Shown here: one piece after another, positions 9,079 to 17,585 of the stretch
Layout of the letters: each line of letters opens with the position of its first letter
Numbering within the stretch: position 1 is the stretch's first letter
Assembly (NCBI GenBank): GCA_031549365.1
Contig: JAVBPX010000014.1
Span: 1 to 53,083, forward strand
Origin: Alphaproteobacteria bacterium
GTDB lineage: Bacteria; Pseudomonadota; Alphaproteobacteria; Rs-D84
DNA length: 53,083 nucleotides
Direction: 5' to 3'
The notes under the pieces: generated by a model
Seen by the model: the letters and a program-made list of their open reading frames with translations, nothing else
Told to the model about the DNA's origin: nothing
The model's database searches: none
Translations under genes and position numbers: made by a program

Positions 9079-9537
9079 TTACCCTCCAACTTTGTTCAAA
9101 TATAATGTTGGTCTTGTTTTCTGCAAACGATCCATGGCATCACGCTGCGCTTTGGCAAAATTTTCTGGATTCCAAATCTGAAAAGTATTTCCACGACCAA
9201 CGAATAACGCAACTTCGCCAATATCTGCATGCTTAACTAAATCAGACGGTAAAATCACACGCCCGGTAACATCAAATGATAGCGGCCTAGCATCCGCAAA
9301 TAACATAGCAGTCAAATCATCTTGGGTCGCATCAAACATGCCCATCTGATCTGTGGCTTTGGCCATTTCGTTCATTCTTGACATTGAAACCCCTTCGATA
9401 CATGGGGCGGTAAATGATCTGTATAAAACAACGCCAGCAAAAGGATCATTTGATAATGCGGATCGGAACCCGGCCGGGACGGAAATCCGTCCTTTTGTAT
9501 CCAGGCGATTTTCGAAGACTGATAAGAATAAAGCCAT
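9079..9537 (-). CDS. mraZ: Division/cell wall transcriptional regulator MraZ
   Basis: Two MraZ repeats (LDTKGRISVPAGFR, FDVTGRVILP) and VGRGNTFQIWNP. Confidence 0.93.
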   Translation of the reverse strand: MALFLSVFENRLDTKGRISVPAGFRSALSNDPFAGVVLYRSFTAPCIEGVSMSRMNEMAKATDQMGMFDATQDDLTAMLFADARPLSFDVTGRVILPSDLVKHADIGEVALFVGRGNTFQIWNPENFAKAQRDAMDRLQKTRPTLYLNKVGG

Positions 9538-9585
9538 TTTTTCGACCTTGGTTCCGATTCGTAGTAAATTTATAGCACGCCCCTT

Positions 9586-9633
9586 CATGGTTGTCAATGA
9601 CATTTTCATGTCCTTTTATGGTATTTTATGGGC
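9586..9633. promoter_or_regulatory. Candidate MraZ-binding array (ATGG-like boxes at 10-11 bp spacing)
   Basis: atgg/atga/atgt/atgg/atgg at 9587, 9597, 9608, 9618 and 9628, directly upstream of mraZ. Confidence 0.5.
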
Positions 9634-10179: not shown

Positions 10180-10450
10180 TTTCTTCATTCTGAACTTGTT
10201 TCAGAATCTGAAAATAAAAACCTCGTCGCCTCGCGACACCATATTGTCCCCTCACCCCTTGTGGGAGAGGCAAGAAAATCTAGAAAATTAATTTTCAGAT
10301 TTTTTGGAAAAGCAGAAAAGTAAATATCACCAATTTCCCTAACGGGAAAGGAAGGGAGGAAGAAGGTCCAACGGCAAAAACCGCACGACCTTCTTTTTTT
10401 ATTATAATAATATGTCATTTCGAGCCACACAGTGGCGTGGCAATCTCAGC
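10180..10450. repeat. Cluster of palindromic REP/RPE-like modules
   Basis: ttcattctgaacttgtttcagaatc; gtcgcctcgcgacac (also at ~26912); cccctcacccc..gggagagg+caagaaaatctagaaaa (also at 13565); tgtcatttcga..gtggcaatctc. Confidence 0.8.
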
Positions 10451-10452
10451 AA

Positions 10453-11832
10453 TTATCTTTGATCTTCACGAAAAAATGGTCTAATAATTTTCTGCTCTAT
10501 CTTTTCTCTCGCACTCTTACAATTTTTTATATAAAAAATCGTATCATCAAACGTCATATTTTTCTGTTGGCCTGTTTCCATATCTTTAACAGTAACTGTT
10601 TTATTTTGCTCTTCATCTTCTCCAATCAAAGCGACAAATGGAACACCAATCTTATTTGCATATTGCATTTTTTTTGCAAATTTTGCCCCATTCATAAATA
10701 ATTCAACATTCACTTTTTCTTCTCGCAATCTAGAGGCCAACTTCAAAGCATAGTCCGATTTTTCAGAAAGAGTAGCAATCAAGACAAATGCACAGGTTTT
10801 CGGACCAGGAACCAACAAATTTCTATCTTTCAGCTGATCAAACAATCTGGTTAACCCTATCGATATTCCGACCCCAGGCATTTTTTCATTTGTATAATAT
10901 GACGACAAATTATCGTATCTTCCCCCGGAACAAACACTTCCAATGTCGTTATGTCCGTTAATCATCGTTTCGTAAACAGTCCCTGTATAATAATCTAAAC
11001 CTCTTGTAATACTTAAATCTATTATATAATTTTTATCAGGAACCGATAATTGTTTCAGCCCATTTACAACGTCCTTTAATTCCTTAATTCCGGTCTGAAA
11101 TAACAAATTTTCTATATTATATTTTTCAAGTTTTTGCAAAATCTCAAACGCAGGTCCTTTCTGAGAAACAAAATCTATAAGTTTGATAATATTATCATTG
11201 GGCACTCCGACAGAGTCTAATTCACGAATAACTCCATCTTTACCGATTTTCATGATTTTATCGACAATCCTAAGAGAGTCAGATGTTTGGTTCTTATCAA
11301 ATCCCAAATTCTCGCATAACCCACTTAATATTTTTCTATTATTTATATGAACTTGAAAATCACTTAAACCCAGTGCACTAAACACGTGATAAATAACAGC
11401 CGGCATTTCCGCATCGTACGAAACATCTAAGCTTTCTCGCCCGACAACATCAATATCGCATTGATAAAACTCACGAAAACGCCCCTTTTGTGGACGCTCT
11501 CCACGATAAACTTTTCCAATATGATACCTTTTAAATGGAAAGACTATATCATTTTGGTGCATAACAACGTATCTTGCCAAAGGAACCGTCAAATCAAACC
11601 TCAAGGCTAAATCTGTATCGCCTTTCTTAAAACTATAAATTTGCTTCTCTGTTTCCCCACCGGCTTTTGCCAACAAAACCTCTGACAATTCCATAACGGG
11701 CGTATCAATCGGCACAAAACCAAAAGATTCAAAAACTTCTGAAACCACTCTTTGCATTTTACTCATAACCAACTGATCCGCTGGTGACAACTCCATAAAT
11801 CCAGAAGGAATACGCGGTGCTACTTTTGACAT
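10453..11832 (-). CDS. hisS: Histidyl-tRNA synthetase
   Basis: LRFDLTVPLARY, YRGERPQKGRFREFYQCD, RGLDYYTG, GGRYD and an anticodon-binding domain, plus a short extra C-terminal tail. Confidence 0.96.
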   Translation of the reverse strand: MSKVAPRIPSGFMELSPADQLVMSKMQRVVSEVFESFGFVPIDTPVMELSEVLLAKAGGETEKQIYSFKKGDTDLALRFDLTVPLARYVVMHQNDIVFPFKRYHIGKVYRGERPQKGRFREFYQCDIDVVGRESLDVSYDAEMPAVIYHVFSALGLSDFQVHINNRKILSGLCENLGFDKNQTSDSLRIVDKIMKIGKDGVIRELDSVGVPNDNIIKLIDFVSQKGPAFEILQKLEKYNIENLLFQTGIKELKDVVNGLKQLSVPDKNYIIDLSITRGLDYYTGTVYETMINGHNDIGSVCSGGRYDNLSSYYTNEKMPGVGISIGLTRLFDQLKDRNLLVPGPKTCAFVLIATLSEKSDYALKLASRLREEKVNVELFMNGAKFAKKMQYANKIGVPFVALIGEDEEQNKTVTVKDMETGQQKNMTFDDTIFYIKNCKSAREKIEQKIIRPFFREDQR

Positions 11833-11865
11833 AAAATCTCCATTTTAATTATGTTATCACAAATC

Positions 11866-11895
11866 TAAGGCAAAGTATGAAAAAACTTTGCCTTA
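11866..11895 (-). promoter_or_regulatory. 11-bp hairpin between the peptide ORF and hisS (terminator, stabiliser or attenuator)
   Basis: taaggcaaagt / actttgcctta perfect stem with an 8-nt loop. Confidence 0.6.
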
Positions 11896-11902
11896 AATAA
11901 AA

Positions 11903-11980
11903 TCAATCATGACAACGTTCGTTTGCTTTTGTTCCGATGGAATTAATTCCCGCAACTGTTTTAACTGCAACTATTTTCAT
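11903..11980 (-). CDS. Putative RiPP precursor peptide MKIVAVKTVAGINSIGTKANERCHD (25 aa)
   Basis: Translated by hand. AAAGGGGGTGAT RBS just before the ATG; starts 22 nt after the radical SAM stop; single Cys near the C-terminus. Confidence 0.8.
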   Translation of the reverse strand: MKIVAVKTVAGINSIGTKANERCHD

Positions 11981-12001
11981 ATCTATCACCCCCTTTTTCT
12001 G

Positions 12002-13309
12002 TTAATTGTTTAAAAATGTTGACTGATAAAAACGATATAAAACGTATGGCATAATTCGCTTTATTATCTCACATCGATAATTATCAACCTCTGTACTACA
12101 ACCTGTTCCCCTATAATTACGCGTCGGACACCCTCCGCCGCAAAAAAATTGCAGCGCGCACTCCTTACATCTTTCTCTTTCCACCGATGTGTGGCAACCT
12201 CTTTTTGCCTCTCTTCTGGAATCATAACCAAACTCAAACGTTTTACTATCTGGGCAATATTCTCCAACCCCCAAAGCATCAAAAAGTTCATGATCTTTAT
12301 TCTGAACCTCTACACACGTACTCATAACCCCAGAAGGGCTAATAACCAATCTGTTATTAACATTCCCGTCACAAAATATTATTGGGGCAACCAACATGTT
12401 CATATAAGGAAAGCATATTATATCCACTCCTAATTCCGCACCCAGCTCAATACAAGATTTTAATTTATCCGCAAAATCATTGGCTGATGGGGGTTGCAAT
12501 TTACTATCGCCTGTCTGACCTCTTCCTCCCGGGGTAACTGGCTCAAAATGAATTTTATTAATGCCCAAACCAGCTAAATACCTAACAGATTCTTCCATAT
12601 ATCTTAATGAATACTCTGTAACAGTGGATCTTATTTTGATGTCTAACCCTTTGCCAACTAAGCCTCTTATTGTTTTTTCTACTGCCACAGAAGTGGCTAC
12701 CCCACCGTGTGTTGGGCGATGATAATCTTGTACTTCCGGAATACCGTCCATAGACAGACTGATTTTAAAATTATTTTCAATCAGAAAATCCAATGCCTCT
12801 TTTGATAAAACACCGTTTGTTGTTATAGCATATTTAAATACATTCTCGCTATTCTCAGAAATTTTTTTTGAGTATGAAATCATTTCCTTCAACAATGAAA
12901 ATTCTGTCGTTGGCTCCCCACCAAATGCGGCAAGTGTTATTTCTCTCCCTTTCGCCAAAGAACATGATAAATCAATTCCCTTGCGCAACAATTCACCCGA
13001 CATCACTTTTCCAATATTAAGAGCATCTAAAAAACAATATCTGCACCGACAGTTACAACGCTCGGTCAAAGAAAGGACAACTGTCAGTTCATCACTTAAA
13101 TTTTGCTTTATGTTTTTCAAACAATCAAAAACGCCATTTTTTAAAGCATACTCATACAATTCTTTTGAATCTGATTCTTCCAAACCTAATTTACACGCCG
13201 TAAACTCGCCATTAATATTTGTAAAAACAATTAAAAACTTTTTTTCTTCTTCCAAGACTTCAATCGCAGGCAAGCCATGCCATAAAGTTGTACTGATAAA
13301 ATTTTGCAT
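12002..13309 (-). CDS. Radical SAM/SPASM-domain protein (peptide maturase-like)
   Basis: CNCRCRYC (CxxxCxxC), FGGEP, ITTNG, ISLSMDG; SPASM cysteines C..C..CKEC-x5-CGGGC..C; ~75-aa N-terminal extension. Confidence 0.93.
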   Translation of the reverse strand: MQNFISTTLWHGLPAIEVLEEEKKFLIVFTNINGEFTACKLGLEESDSKELYEYALKNGVFDCLKNIKQNLSDELTVVLSLTERCNCRCRYCFLDALNIGKVMSGELLRKGIDLSCSLAKGREITLAAFGGEPTTEFSLLKEMISYSKKISENSENVFKYAITTNGVLSKEALDFLIENNFKISLSMDGIPEVQDYHRPTHGGVATSVAVEKTIRGLVGKGLDIKIRSTVTEYSLRYMEESVRYLAGLGINKIHFEPVTPGGRGQTGDSKLQPPSANDFADKLKSCIELGAELGVDIICFPYMNMLVAPIIFCDGNVNNRLVISPSGVMSTCVEVQNKDHELFDALGVGEYCPDSKTFEFGYDSRREAKRGCHTSVERERCKECALQFFCGGGCPTRNYRGTGCSTEVDNYRCEIIKRIMPYVLYRFYQSTFLNN

Positions 13310-13523
13310 ACGTTCGCTCCAAATTATTCAGAAACAGATACTTTCTACCAATTTCCATCACATAATTTATACTAGAGCAAATTACAAATTGCAAGTTTTA
13401 TTTGAAATTTAAATGATTTTCTACCATAAATAGAATTAATCCCCCATTTTTCTACCTTATATACCATAATTTGCAACCGCTCCAAAAACGTGCTATAATC
13501 TGTCCGAACAATTGGAAACTCTA

Positions 13524-14321
13524 ATGAAAAAACTATCCGCAATCACAAATCTAAAATCTCATTTCCCTCGCCCCTTGGGGGAGAGGCAAGAAAATCTAGA
13601 AAACTTATTTTCAGATTTTCTAGAGAGGGGTAAAAAAACATATATCGCGACAAGCGCCCTCATCTTACTCTCTACGCCAACATTCGCATCCATCCCTGAA
13701 TGGTTGAACGATTTCACAGTTGGCGGCGGATACGGGGCAGTAACGGGATTCAACGGCCAAATCGGATACCGTCCAAAAAAATCGCAACTCGGACTCCGCT
13801 TTGATATAAACGCGCTTCCTTCTTGGAATCCCCCATTTATCTTTTGGAATGGCAATTTTAATGTAGATATTCGGGGCGTCCCGGTACATTTCGATCTAAC
13901 CCGCAGCAACGTTGATTTAAAACATTTCAGTGCGGGCTTACTTCTCGATTATTATTTCGAACAATCCGACTTATTCGTGTCGGCTGGATTATATTATTCC
14001 GATGCAACCGTACACACAGACCAAACCCGCACAATAATACCAAACCTGTGGGATGTATCGGCAACAGCCAACATGTCCTGGCCCGATCGATTTACACCAT
14101 ATATTGGAATTGGCTATGATTGGAAATTGTGGAAACAATTATATTTAAAACCCGAATTCGGAGTAATGTATGTCGGCAAACCCAAAACAGAATTAATTGT
14201 CTCGGGAATTCCACAATTAACTCCGGAACAACTAGCAAATGCAAACCGCGGTTTTTCTGACAAGGTCAGCGTTGCACAATTCTATCCTATGGTGCGCCTC
14301 TCCACCATCTGGAAATTCTAG
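13524..14321 (+). CDS. Outer-membrane beta-barrel protein
   Basis: Signal peptide (..TPTFA), amphipathic beta strands, PYIGIGY, terminal aromatic ..IWKF. Confidence 0.82.
   Translation: MKKLSAITNLKSHFPRPLGERQENLENLFSDFLERGKKTYIATSALILLSTPTFASIPEWLNDFTVGGGYGAVTGFNGQIGYRPKKSQLGLRFDINALPSWNPPFIFWNGNFNVDIRGVPVHFDLTRSNVDLKHFSAGLLLDYYFEQSDLFVSAGLYYSDATVHTDQTRTIIPNLWDVSATANMSWPDRFTPYIGIGYDWKLWKQLYLKPEFGVMYVGKPKTELIVSGIPQLTPEQLANANRGFSDKVSVAQFYPMVRLSTIWKF
13565..13630 (+). repeat. Palindromic element inserted in frame in the OMP signal peptide region
   Basis: 66 bp, closely matching the intergenic copy at ~10248-10305. Confidence 0.85.
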
Positions 14322-14383: not shown

Positions 14384-14845
14384 CTACATCGCCCCGGTTG
14401 ACCCAAATCCTCCGATACCTCTATCGGTCTCGGACAATTCATCAACAAATTCAATCCTCGGCTTTAACACAGGGGCTACAACCATCTGCTTAATCCTCTC
14501 ACCCTTTTTGACTTCAAACGACTGATCTGTAATATTTGTAACACTCATTCCTACATAACCGCGATACGAAAAATCAATCGTCCCAAAATGCCCAACGATT
14601 CCCTTCTTGGATAAACTAGATCTCGGCCTTAATTGAATTTCAAAATTATCGCTTTCGCAATCTGAAATTTCCATCGCAACACCCGATTTAATAATTTTTG
14701 TCTCACCCGGCATTAATAAAAAATCATCTTCGACCGAACGCAAATCAATCCCAGAATCTCCATGCAACCATTCAATCCCACGGGATTCGGAATTCAAATA
14801 AATATCACGAACCTCATCTGATAAAAATTTAATTTTTAATTTCAT
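14384..14845 (-). CDS. dut: dUTP diphosphatase
   Basis: SGIDL, PRSSL, GTIDFSYRG, RIKQ and RGIGGFGSTG motifs. Confidence 0.95.
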   Translation of the reverse strand: MKLKIKFLSDEVRDIYLNSESRGIEWLHGDSGIDLRSVEDDFLLMPGETKIIKSGVAMEISDCESDNFEIQLRPRSSLSKKGIVGHFGTIDFSYRGYVGMSVTNITDQSFEVKKGERIKQMVVAPVLKPRIEFVDELSETDRGIGGFGSTGAM

Positions 14846-15066: not shown

Positions 15067-15780
15067 TTAATCAAAATTATCTATCACATCATTAATAACA
15101 ACGGATGCCGCACGAACTCCGATTCCTGCCGTCATCGTCATCATGCTGGGCAAAACCCTGGCCGAATCCCTGGCGGCCGCAACATCGGGTGCAATGCATT
15201 CATCCGAATAAACCGCAATAATTTTGGATAAATCAACCGAACGCTCTTTTAAACCATGGCGAACAGCCTTGGCCAGCGAACAACCGGATGTTTGATTCAT
15301 TGAACCAACTTTAATCCGCGATAAATCGCGTTTTTGCGCAGCCCCCATGGACGATACAACCATAATATTTTGATCCACACATGCTGTCAACAATGAAACC
15401 TTGGCCCGAACATCATCAATTGCATCCACAACAATATTCGGAGAAATATTATCCAACAATTTCGACACATTATCGCTATCAACTTTAATCGCCAAACTCA
15501 ATATTTCACAATCTGGATTAATATCCAAAATACGATCATGCATAACATCAACTTTTAATTTGCCAACGGTCGAATGTAATGCCACAATCTGACGATTTAT
15601 ATTTGATTCTTCCACTCGATCAAAATCAACAATCGTAATACGCCCAACACCTGCGCGCGCCAAAACCTCGGTCGCCATTCCGCCCACAGCACCAATACCA
15701 ACCACCATAACATGCAAAGCGCGCAACCGGGCCATCGCATCTATCCCAATTAATAACTCTGTCCTATCAAAAGCCCCCAT
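15067..15780 (-). CDS. tcdA: tRNA threonylcarbamoyladenosine dehydratase (ThiF family)
   Basis: RTELLIG, VGIGAVG, SNINRQ, VDAID, SSMGAA, AVYSDE. Confidence 0.85.
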   Translation of the reverse strand: MGAFDRTELLIGIDAMARLRALHVMVVGIGAVGGMATEVLARAGVGRITIVDFDRVEESNINRQIVALHSTVGKLKVDVMHDRILDINPDCEILSLAIKVDSDNVSKLLDNISPNIVVDAIDDVRAKVSLLTACVDQNIMVVSSMGAAQKRDLSRIKVGSMNQTSGCSLAKAVRHGLKERSVDLSKIIAVYSDECIAPDVAAARDSARVLPSMMTMTAGIGVRAASVVINDVIDNFD

Positions 15781-15858
15781 ATTAAATCCTTTTAAATAAC
15801 TTAAAGATGAATTCATCCAAAATTTATAAAAAACTTATAAAAACACGTCAAAGTTGGA

Positions 15859-15995: not shown

Positions 15996-17261
15996 TTACG
16001 AATTCATGGAATTGAAAAAGTCCTGATTGGTTTTGGTAACACGTAACTTATCCAATAAAAATTCCATCGCTTCTAATGTGCCCATTGGATTAATTACACG
16101 ACGCAAAACCCACATACGTTGTAATGTTTCTTTGTCGACCAATAAATCCTCTTTACGAGTTCCAGACTTTGTAATATCAATGGCTGGATAAACACGCTTA
16201 TCGGACAATTTGCGATCCAAAATAATTTCGGAATTTCCTGTACCTTTGAACTCTTCAAAAATAACTTCGTCCATTCTAGACCCAGTTTCAATTAACGCAG
16301 TCGCGATAATTGTTAATGATCCACCTTCTTCGATATTACGAGCGGCACCAAAAAATCTCTTTGGGCGCTGTAATGCATGGGCATCAACACCACCTGTTAA
16401 AACCTTACCGGACGATGGCACAACAGTATTGTATGCACGGGCCAACCTAGTAATAGAATCCAACAAAATCACAACATCTTCGCCCATTTCGACTAAACGC
16501 TTTGCTTTTTCAATAACCATCTCGGCAACTTGAACGTGTCGGGACGCAGGCTCGTCAAAGGTCGAAGAAATAACTTCCCCCTTAACCGAACGTTGCATAT
16601 CAGTAACTTCTTCTGGACGTTCATCAATTAATAAAACGATTAATTTAACTTTTGGATGATTTGTTGCAATCGAATGCGCAATATTTTGCAACATAACGGT
16701 CTTACCGGTACGCGGTGGCGCAACGATCAAAGAACGCTGTCCCTTACCCGTCGGGGCAATCAAATCAATAACACGCGATGCCAATGCACGCCCTTTTTCT
16801 TTCTCATCTGGAATTTCCATGTTCAACATTTCATCCGGATATAGCGGAGTCATATCATCAAAAGGAACACGATGCTTTAACTTATCCAAATCGCCATCAT
16901 TAACGCGTTCAATTGAATCTAATGCAAAATATCTTTCACCTTCGCGTGGCGCCTGAATAATACCTTCGACATAATCACCTGTTTTTAAACCATACTTTTT
17001 AACCAAATTTGGTGAAACATATAAATCATCCGGCCCGGCCAAATAATTGGCTTCTGGACTGCGCAAAAAACCAAATCCATCCGGCATGCGCTCCAAAACT
17101 CCGTCCCCTATTAATGTAACATCATCGGACGCAGCCATCGCCTTCAACACTGAAAACCGTAATTGCTGAACATTCATCTGGCTTGGGTTTTCAATCCCCA
17201 TTTTTTCGGCTTCTGTAATTAATTGCGCCGGACTTTTTGATTTTAATTCTTTAACATGCAT
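15996..17261 (-). CDS. rho: Transcription termination factor Rho
   Basis: [43 protein letters not shown]. Start placed at MHVKELK (GAGG RBS). Confidence 0.97.
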
Positions 17262-17585
17262 AATTTTTCCTCTATATTTTTTTGTCATCCTTACGATCTC
17301 TGATCGTGTAATGGATTTTTTCCTTTGTTTTTCCGACAAAGGTCGGATTTTCTTTTGTCATAGCCATGACATCATAACGCCGTGACAATCTTTGCAACTA
17401 AAATCGCGCCAAACCTGACACAAAATTTAATATCAACAAAATGTAACTGGAAACTTTCGGTCGCTTGACCTTTTACATCCAACCGATCGGCAGGACACAG
17501 ATAACATAGCATCAAAAACCCCAAAAGTCAAGCCATTTGAAAAATTCCCTTGCTTTTGTCAACCGACATCCATAATATCAAACCC

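Follow-up and report, generated by a model that had tools for sequence, protein, structure and literature searches.

A radical SAM/SPASM maturase, a Cys-X-Asp-ending precursor and an extra histidyl-tRNA synthetase gene define a candidate RiPP family in a small alphaproteobacterial genome

Microcin C, whose precursors end in Asn, is made with an MccB-type ThiF adenylyltransferase, and the RimL-type acetyltransferase MccE gives immunity against it. The S51 peptidase MccG also confers immunity, against the AspRS-inhibiting payload of this compound (PMC9239234). In the tiarins, the trifolitoxin (TFX) family, the biosynthetic gene cluster (BGC) encodes a synthetase, duplicated elsewhere in the genome, whose specificity corresponds to the residue that precedes a conserved Gln; TFX was shown experimentally to inhibit ArgRS after PepN processing, in a Trojan-horse mode, and the N-acetyltransferase (GNAT) TfxH detoxifies the processed warhead by acetylation (10.64898/2025.12.02.691738). 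Among radical SAM enzymes, PapB takes Cys-Xn-Asp substrates, n being 0-6, and is also able to form a link between Cys and the C-terminal residue (PMC9413430, PMC12373016). Here, we analysed a stretch of 53,083 nt from an Alphaproteobacteria bacterium (GenBank assembly GCA_031549365.1, contig JAVBPX010000014.1; hereafter the window), which carries a three-gene module composed of a radical SAM/SPASM maturase, a 25-aa precursor peptide ending in Cys-His-Asp and an extra histidyl-tRNA synthetase (HisRS). We regard this module as a member of a previously undescribed family of peptides that are made on the ribosome and modified post-translationally (RiPPs), whose precursors end in Cys-X-Asp-COOH. 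All cluster features lie on the minus strand of the window; related loci are named L012 to L047, and genomes are named G000 (the window genome), G041 and so on.

12002..13309, minus strand: radical SAM/SPASM peptide maturase, 435 aa (open reading frame (ORF), Pfam, NCBIfam, homologue alignment, AlphaFold2 model)
11985..11996, minus strand: Shine-Dalgarno region AAAGGGGGTGAT of the precursor gene, 4 bases ahead of the ATG
11903..11980, minus strand: precursor peptide gene, 25 aa, ending Cys-His-Asp-stop (ATG start; homologous peptides)
11854..11915, minus strand: hairpin between the precursor gene and hisS, with an inner 14-bp stem at 11863..11898 (folding)
10453..11832, minus strand: cluster histidine--tRNA ligase hisS, 459 aa, the second hisS of the genome (TIGR00442, 415.5 bits, cut-off 286.75)

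The reading that we prefer, with a probability of about 0.6, is that the module makes a PapB-like RiPP with a Cys-Asp thioether, the processed C-terminus of which would inhibit the synthetase specific for X, and that the adjacent hisS would be the immunity gene; we infer both the chemistry and the target. Thioether-type SPASM RiPPs, on the side of the enzyme, and Trojan-horse synthetase inhibitors with target-copy immunity, on the side of function, are known kinds of system. In the literature within reach of our search, which left out most subscription journals and supplements, we found no paper in which synthetase genes are tied to a radical SAM/SPASM maturase or to a C-x-D precursor.

The family shares with the tiarins a precursor residue that matches a duplicated cluster synthetase, and GNAT genes nearby. 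It differs from them in its enzymology and in its motif: tiarins are made by the flavin mononucleotide-dependent dehydrogenases TfxB/TfxC and carry X-Gln, whereas the window family combines a radical SAM/SPASM enzyme with C-X-D-COOH and its window peptide is free of Gln. A scan of window neighbours showed no domain that resembles a nitroreductase or TfxB/C, and neither 'radical' nor 'SPASM' occurs in the main text of the tiarin preprint (10.64898/2025.12.02.691738), its supplementary tables lying outside that check. Microcin C is likewise a ribosomal peptide, with a processed, Asp-derived C-terminal piece that inhibits AspRS, and its RimL-type GNAT and S51 immunity types recur in Asp-type loci of our family. 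In contrast to microcin C, the window family has no conserved MccB-type adenylyltransferase, its precursor ends in Asp and its putative target varies with X. The PapB/freyrasin-type ranthipeptide maturases and QhpD resemble the window enzyme in being radical SAM proteins with a full SPASM domain, and in a substrate that carries a Cys followed by an Asp. The PapB substrate has six internal C-x3-D motifs, whereas the window family has a single C-x-D fixed at the C-terminus; further differences are a score below the PapB cut-off, an N-terminal domain of ~70 aa, the synthetase-linked context and a crosslink that is here putative.

The maturase and its conserved precursor

A preliminary description of this locus, made from the letters alone, had proposed an unannotated 25-aa ORF with a strong ribosome-binding site just past the stop codon of the radical SAM gene. 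We confirmed this ORF at 11903..11980, with AAAGGGGGTGAT 4 bases before its ATG, which is the 22nd base past the maturase stop codon. The precursor reads MKIVAVKTVAGINSIGTKANERCHD, and an alternative in-frame GTG start, 3 codons upstream of the ATG, would give 28 aa. The hairpin predicted to follow the ORF was also found: the region 3' of the precursor stop folds with -22.1 kcal/mol (z = -4.35), and 0 of 200 shuffled sequences were equally stable. With no T-run behind its stem, the hairpin was not called in a simple scan for intrinsic terminators; it may act as a partial terminator or as a processing or stability element.

About 100 homologues of the maturase were found at E < 1e-56, nearly all of them metagenomic; few are named, and then generically ('radical SAM protein'). 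The comparative set consisted of 36 related loci, 17 from species-representative genomes and 19 from metagenome contigs, in which every frame on both strands was scanned for frames ending C-x-D-stop. Such a frame lies downstream of the enzyme, on the same strand, in 32 of the 36 loci, starting at most ~110 nt from the end of the match in 31 of them and at 621 nt in L014. Three further loci (L025, L042 and L043) carry one immediately upstream of the enzyme, and in L016 the available sequence, from which the upstream side is missing, holds none. Elsewhere in the 36 loci, on either strand, only 8 other C-x-D-stop frames occur. A chance ORF was considered and is ruled out by these counts (35 of 36 loci against 8 frames elsewhere). 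The preliminary description had named the presence of a similar small ORF beside homologous enzymes as the test of a precursor-enzyme pair, and with 35 of 36 loci carrying one, the enzyme and the small ORF are almost certainly a true precursor-maturase pair of the RiPP type.

Homologous peptides show how the precursor is built. Of the 26 peptides examined, 25 have a Shine-Dalgarno-like motif ahead of the chosen start; a (P/x)-x-G-[ILV]-[ILNV]-type leader motif is common to the family members, which are 23-35 aa long, and the only invariant residues are the Cys at -3 and the C-terminal Asp. The window peptide has a leader motif of the G-I-N-S type, and all five His-type peptides end in the same TKANERCHD. 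The crosslink sites first put forward were N-E-R-C, C-H-D and R-C. The C-x-D element is conserved, but N-x-x-C and R-C are confined to the His type and are lost in the other subtypes, which end in ...TEKCFD, ...KRTCPD or ...LGNCDD. No NCBIfam or Pfam family matched the window peptide, and no NCBIfam family matched any of seven relatives. The maturases are not covered by any NCBIfam equivalog model either (the window enzyme and four relatives all score below cut-off).

The maturase belongs to the radical SAM superfamily (PF04055, 46.5 bits against a cut-off of 29.5), with its CxxxCxxC motif at C85, C89 and C92. Seven further cysteines, C313, C332, C381, C384, C390, C394 and C413, follow the pattern C-x13-G-x4-C ... 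C-x2-C-x5-C-x3-C ... C, the seven-Cys C-terminal SPASM motif that serves two auxiliary Fe-S clusters. None of the ten cysteines varies across 24 homologues (30-68% identity), in agreement with the full cysteine set noted at the outset. The Pfam models for SPASM (PF13186) and PqqD gave no match in the maturase at E <= 1. Its best NCBIfam match is PapB (NF047865) with 137.4 bits, below the cut-off of 340, and PapB is also the top match of four other family maturases, at 112-169 bits. SCIFF maturase, nif11-type maturase, HxsB and QhpD follow in the ranking; scores below cut-off include SCIFF maturase TIGR03974 (115.3 bits, cut-off 425), QhpD TIGR03906 (96.7, cut-off 453) and anaerobic sulfatase maturase TIGR03942 (87.5, cut-off 349).

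An AlphaFold2 model of the maturase, built from the homologue alignment, reached a pLDDT of 85.8 and a pTM of 0.87. The closest structure is that of CteB, a thioether-forming SPASM maturase (PDB 5WHY/5WGG), with a Foldseek E of 8e-21 and a VIA Z of 32.3 over 374 aligned residues (root-mean-square deviation 4.1, 21% identity). It is the best structural match, with the N-terminal peptide-binding domain included, and it differs in having 20-22% sequence identity, another substrate and another bond-accepting residue. The model aligns up to residue 429-434 with CteB and anSMEcpe. Alignments to CteB and TigE begin at model residue 10-11 (residue 2 of the CteB chain), and those to anSMEcpe and ChlB begin only at residues 67-73. 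As the CteB alignment starts from model residue 11, it includes the N-terminal domain.

This N-terminal extension had been described as ~75 aa long and as a possible RiPP precursor recognition element (RRE). We find a conserved extension of ~70 aa, predicted to be beta-rich with four strands (6-42) and one helix (49-57). A PqqD-like RRE is a leader-binding winged helix of three strands and three helices, and the N-terminal domain of CteB, with which the extension aligns, we take to be an RRE. The part of the proposal that concerns the extension itself stands, and to call the domain RRE-like, given the alignment with CteB, is reasonable; an RRE identity is unproven, as no PqqD-type Pfam match was obtained. 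Complex prediction, suggested earlier as a check of peptide binding, was carried out for a relative pair, the L018 enzyme with its 33-aa C-P-D peptide, with alignments for both. The three runs gave ipSAE values of 0.54, 0.41 and 0.63, against 0.00 for the best of 3 controls, with a partner pLDDT of 65-68 and at least 80% of the contacts in agreement. This counts as 'weak support' for binding, at a median ipSAE of 0.54: in the calibration, 58 of 80 solved complexes reached the mark, as did 2 of 110 mismatched pairs, and at values <= 0.60 fall 7 of the 80 complexes together with both passing mismatches.

What the enzyme does to the peptide can be approached through its relatives. The nearest families (PapB, QhpD, SCIFF maturase and CteB) all form Cys thioethers, and for this reason we consider that the maturase would join the Cys sulfur to the C-terminal Asp, most likely at the Asp beta-carbon as in PapB and QhpD, closing a small C-terminal ring. 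Membership of the ranthipeptide class, in which Cys is linked by a thioether to a non-alpha carbon, is suggested by the invariant Cys and Asp and by homology. A synthetase-directed RiPP made by other chemistry is quite unlikely in our judgement; it would involve a link to the Asp alpha-carbon (sactionine-like and carboxylate-directed), oxidative decarboxylation with cyclisation, or a SAM-derived fragment. MftC performs oxidative decarboxylation and then cyclisation on its substrate. The maturase lies far under every equivalog cut-off (137 against 340 bits for PapB), so its chemistry may differ, and the strictly terminal position of Asp suggests that the free alpha-carboxylate matters; PapB itself can link Cys to the carbon beside a C-terminal carboxylate (PMC12373016). 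Against such chemistries, the top family match in five of five members is a Cys-Asp side-chain thioether maturase, and Cys and Asp are both invariant, as a Cys-Asp link predicts.

Some loci deviate in their peptides. In L037 (1280-6260) the peptide ends C-D-C-D-D, and the flanks, in which no synthetase is found, hold an ATP-grasp-like ORF (weak matches), an S51 peptidase and an ABC transporter pair. On a side branch of the maturase tree, a longer upstream ORF ends in C-K-D or C-N-D (L025 2453-2770, 105 aa; L042 2030-2266), making Lys and Asn types with an upstream precursor possible. The flanks of L025 and L042 show no visible LysRS or AsnRS, and L042 carries a further radical SAM gene.

The residue X and the synthetase encoded beside it

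In the preliminary description, which saw no adjacent protease, transporter or sulfatase, the surroundings of the pair had been taken as uninformative. This view has to be revised, since the hisS gene that starts 70 nt beyond the stop codon of the small ORF matches the His of C-H-D, and the same rule applies to the Pro, Asp and Phe subtypes. To compare the loci, 133 flanking ORFs were annotated with Pfam and then with NCBIfam equivalog models above cut-off. Seven duplicates were set aside (L038 = L028, L039 = L041 = L019, L040 = L020, L046 = L027, L047 = L036, L043 = L042). With the window counted, 27 non-redundant loci remain whose peptide lies downstream. Their precursor ends and neighbouring synthetases are as follows.

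C-H-D: hisS, above cut-off, in the window, L012, L029, L030 and L031
C-P-D: proS of type II without the editing insertion, ~440 aa, in L018, L019, L020, L022, L023, L024 and L027
C-P-D: proS, full-length, 568 aa, in L026
C-P-D: proS ~4 kb off on the same contig, in L021
C-D-D: archaeal-type aspartate--tRNA(Asn) ligase (aspS) in L014 (two tandem copies), L028, L036 and L015 (partial, contig end)
C-F-D: pheS-pheT on the same strand, ~2.9 kb past the peptide, in L013 (G055, a Lachnospiraceae metagenome-assembled genome (MAG))
Synthetase not seen in the flanks: L017, L034, L035, L037 and L044 (Asp type), L033 and L045 (Pro type), L032 (Phe type)

A nearby synthetase is present in 19 of the 27 loci; X agrees with its specificity in 19 of 19, and no locus holds a synthetase of another specificity. 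In the maturase tree, X mostly tracks the enzyme clades with at least 4 state changes (the Phe type lies inside the His clade and one Pro type inside the Asp clade), and since X follows the clades, the concordance amounts to about four independent associations and not 19, a first point that weighs against the preferred reading.

The match raises the question of whether the small ORF could be an attenuation leader peptide, in which a ribosome stalled at the X codon would mask the 5' arm of the hairpin and let transcription read through into hisS when charged tRNA-His is scarce. The arrangement in the window has the elements for this, as the His codon is penultimate, before the terminal Asp, a stable hairpin lies a few bases past the stop and hisS follows 70 nt on, and X fits the synthetase in all 19 synthetase-bearing loci. 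Other loci are arranged differently: in L026, L030, L031 and L036 the synthetase is upstream of the enzyme, L014 and L015 have it on the opposite strand, and in L013, L021 and L028 it lies 1.5-4 kb off behind other genes. Nor does attenuation account for the loci that have no synthetase, for the conserved leader motif and the obligatory radical SAM partner, or for a Cys and a C-terminal Asp that never vary, and we consider it highly improbable.

In all but one of the genomes checked, the cluster synthetase is an additional copy. The window genome (0.91 Mb, 97.6% complete) has two hisS genes above the curated cut-off, the second lying outside the window at G000:C2:5253-6497 (L049) with 316.5 bits, and being hisS and not hisZ. 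None of 25 relatives of G000 has two hisS genes above the cut-off, and their single hisS scores like the C2 copy. In an IQ-TREE analysis of 20 HisRS sequences, the C2 copy falls inside the clade of same-family relatives (support 100/99), and the five cluster HisRS form a clade of their own (87/98). The cluster HisRS of the window is 36% identical to the C2 copy of its own genome and 71.5% identical to the cluster copy of G041, another cluster-bearing alphaproteobacterial MAG, which also has two hisS genes. The C2 hisS is the vertically inherited copy, and the cluster HisRS has a separate ancestry.

Duplication extends to the other types, with a second synthetase of the same specificity in 14 of the 15 cluster genomes checked. 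All nine C-P-D genomes have another ProRS, which is of type I in eight (572-620 bits) and a full-length type II enzyme in G044, and G047, G048 and G050 have an additional AspRS. The two features expected of a synthetase-inhibitor BGC with target-copy immunity are both present, a cluster synthetase that fits the precursor residue (19/19) and a second copy elsewhere in the genome (14/15). The link to the synthetase is probably functional, either as target or as immunity. Given the matching hisS next to it, the product, first seen as a crosslinked peptide without a specified role, is more likely a synthetase-directed compound accompanied by an immunity gene.

We also compared the cluster HisRS with a consensus of 13 nearer housekeeping HisRS, from which two sequences, the most divergent ones (G041_second and G029_rel), were left out. 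Only two substitutions are cluster-specific, Y to F in the motif-2 element GR(Y/F)REF and W to L at 169 (residues 119 and 169). Both F and L are common to all five cluster-associated HisRS, and they are candidate changes in the region of the active site.

Proposed mode of action and its alternatives

In the mechanism that we propose, the maturase would bind the leader through its N-terminal domain and form the C-terminal ring. The product would be exported and taken up by a target cell, where general peptidases would trim the leader. The resistant C-terminal piece may then offer X, here His, to the cognate synthetase and block that enzyme, so that X would serve as a one-residue target code. 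The producer would be guarded by the cluster synthetase, in the window hisS at 10453-11832, and in other members a RimL-type N-acetyltransferase or an S51 peptidase may give further protection. RimL-type GNATs (Acetyltransf_3) adjoin the cluster in the Asp-type loci L014, L017, L028 and L034, and S51 peptidases in L015, L016 (two copies), L036 and L037, all of Asp type save L016, in which no peptide was seen. The presence of these 'aspartyl' peptidases at Asp-type loci would fit a processed product that starts with X and has a free amino group. Transporter genes were found in two loci, an ABC exporter in L037 and an MFS transporter in L045.

The cluster may travel. Mobility genes stand beside it in three loci (a DDE transposase at L031 4194-5780, a phage-type integrase at L045 1035-1886 and a recombinase at L044 296-724), and the family is spread over Pseudomonadota, Patescibacteria and Bacillota, which together fit a horizontally moving accessory module. 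Sampled genomes rarely hold the family, and a pattern scan of the species-representative collection yielded 17 loci. No maturase orthologue was found in 40 relatives of G000, the best other match having E 2e-14 and 26% identity. Among 401 sampled Patescibacteria genomes, one, the seed G047, has a true member, and eleven others with relatives of 163-225 bits lie outside the family because they have no C-x-D ORF. Similarly, one of 399 sampled genomes of the Clostridia-containing class of G042 has a member, namely the seed G042 itself.

These data also bear on the possibility of a genuine RiPP with a non-inhibitory product, such as a signal, a cofactor-like molecule or a regulator, in which the synthetase would be linked for another reason (a tRNA-dependent step, co-regulation or, in the producer itself, binding or modulation by the product). 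Neither an exporter nor a protease is present at the window locus, and the family is frequent in genomes of very small size (0.91 Mb for the window genome, 0.9 Mb for Patescibacteria), in which a housekeeping or regulatory role is conceivable. BGC synthetase genes can also serve tRNA-dependent steps, according to the tiarin preprint (10.64898/2025.12.02.691738), and the single pheS of G055 would suit this explanation. However, X is already encoded in the peptide, and tRNA-dependent addition is therefore unneeded. Duplication in 14 of 15 genomes, the separate clade of cluster HisRS and the recurrent GNAT and S51 genes better suit immunity, and a sporadic distribution with transposase, integrase and recombinase neighbours is typical of accessory weapons and not of core functions. 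On balance, we find a non-inhibitory product unlikely.

Besides the clade dependence of the concordance, several other observations weigh against a synthetase-inhibiting thioether RiPP. The crosslink and the target are putative and come from homology and gene context. Eight of the 27 non-redundant loci have no synthetase in the fetched flanks, four of these eight lying on contigs of 2-5.6 kb. G055 (C-F-D) has only one detectable pheS, and its neighbouring gene may therefore be the housekeeping copy. The cluster HisRS resembles a normal HisRS and even outscores the housekeeping copy on the hisS model; since the enzyme looks normal and carries two substitutions only, its resistance is putative. 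Within ~4 kb of the window locus there is no exporter, protease or GNAT. Finally, the maturase frame is split into two ORFs in two Clostridia MAGs, L026 (2435-3695) and L027 (2500-4255), with the C-P-D peptide and ProRS intact; this interruption could reflect decay or an assembly error.

If the inhibitor reading is correct, the residue flanked by the invariant Cys and the terminal Asp would predict the cellular target of each member, and a radical-SAM route would join the very short list of ribosomal peptide synthetase inhibitors, which includes microcin C and the tiarins. Bacteria with genomes below 1 Mb would still invest in chemical warfare, at the cost of a second synthetase gene, and natural pairs of sensitive and putatively resistant HisRS, ProRS, AspRS and PheRS would be at hand for structural study. 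For annotation, the missed 25-aa gene is recovered, and the puzzling duplicate hisS would be accounted for. More tentatively, the family might form a third class, evolved independently, of Trojan-horse inhibitors of synthetases that are programmable: the last three residues of a 23-35-aa peptide would become a nucleotide-free warhead and X alone would pick the target, in a mobile three-gene weapon with a resistant synthetase present in ultra-small genomes (Patescibacteria and a 0.9-Mb gut alphaproteobacterium) and gut Clostridia. If this warhead is essentially X-Asp tethered to Cys, no smaller natural mimic of an aminoacyl-adenylate would be known, and it would offer a general scaffold with which any synthetase could be probed.

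Other neighbouring genes and RNA-derived contigs

The remaining neighbours of the window locus are a weak beta-barrel outer-membrane-protein-like ORF at 13512-14321 (plus strand), upstream of and divergent from the maturase and below Pfam cut-offs, and genes for a dUTPase (14384-14845, minus strand), Rho (15996-17339, minus strand) and MraZ (9079-9609, minus strand), none of which suggests peptide export or processing. We weighed a ThiF-like gene at 15067-15816 (minus strand, 249 aa), 1.8 kb past the maturase, as an adenylyltransferase of the microcin C type and rejected this role: TcdA, its top match, scores 135 bits, below the cut-off of 304, and the gene is probably unrelated to the cluster, because the closest relative locus, L012, has no ThiF gene.

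In the metatranscriptome run X2, which belongs to the study that the probable source sample comes from, one contig of 1669 nt is identical to window positions 10415-12083, a stretch that takes in hisS and the peptide ORF and reaches into the maturase gene at its 3' end, and a contig of 155 nt lies at 13181-13335. Most of the maturase gene is uncovered in X2; as these are contigs from an RNA library, they speak to neither strand, level nor true transcription, and the uncovered parts prove nothing.

Between its peptide and pheS-pheT, the Lachnospiraceae locus has a B12-binding radical SAM enzyme (methyltransferase-like; L082 7745-9283 = L013 2491-4029) and an ORF of 295 aa without a family, and these may be extra tailoring genes. 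Four C-P-D loci of Clostridia (L018, L020, L021 and L027) have a gene for an HlyIII (haemolysin-III-family) membrane protein directly upstream of the maturase, a candidate for a role in export or immunity.

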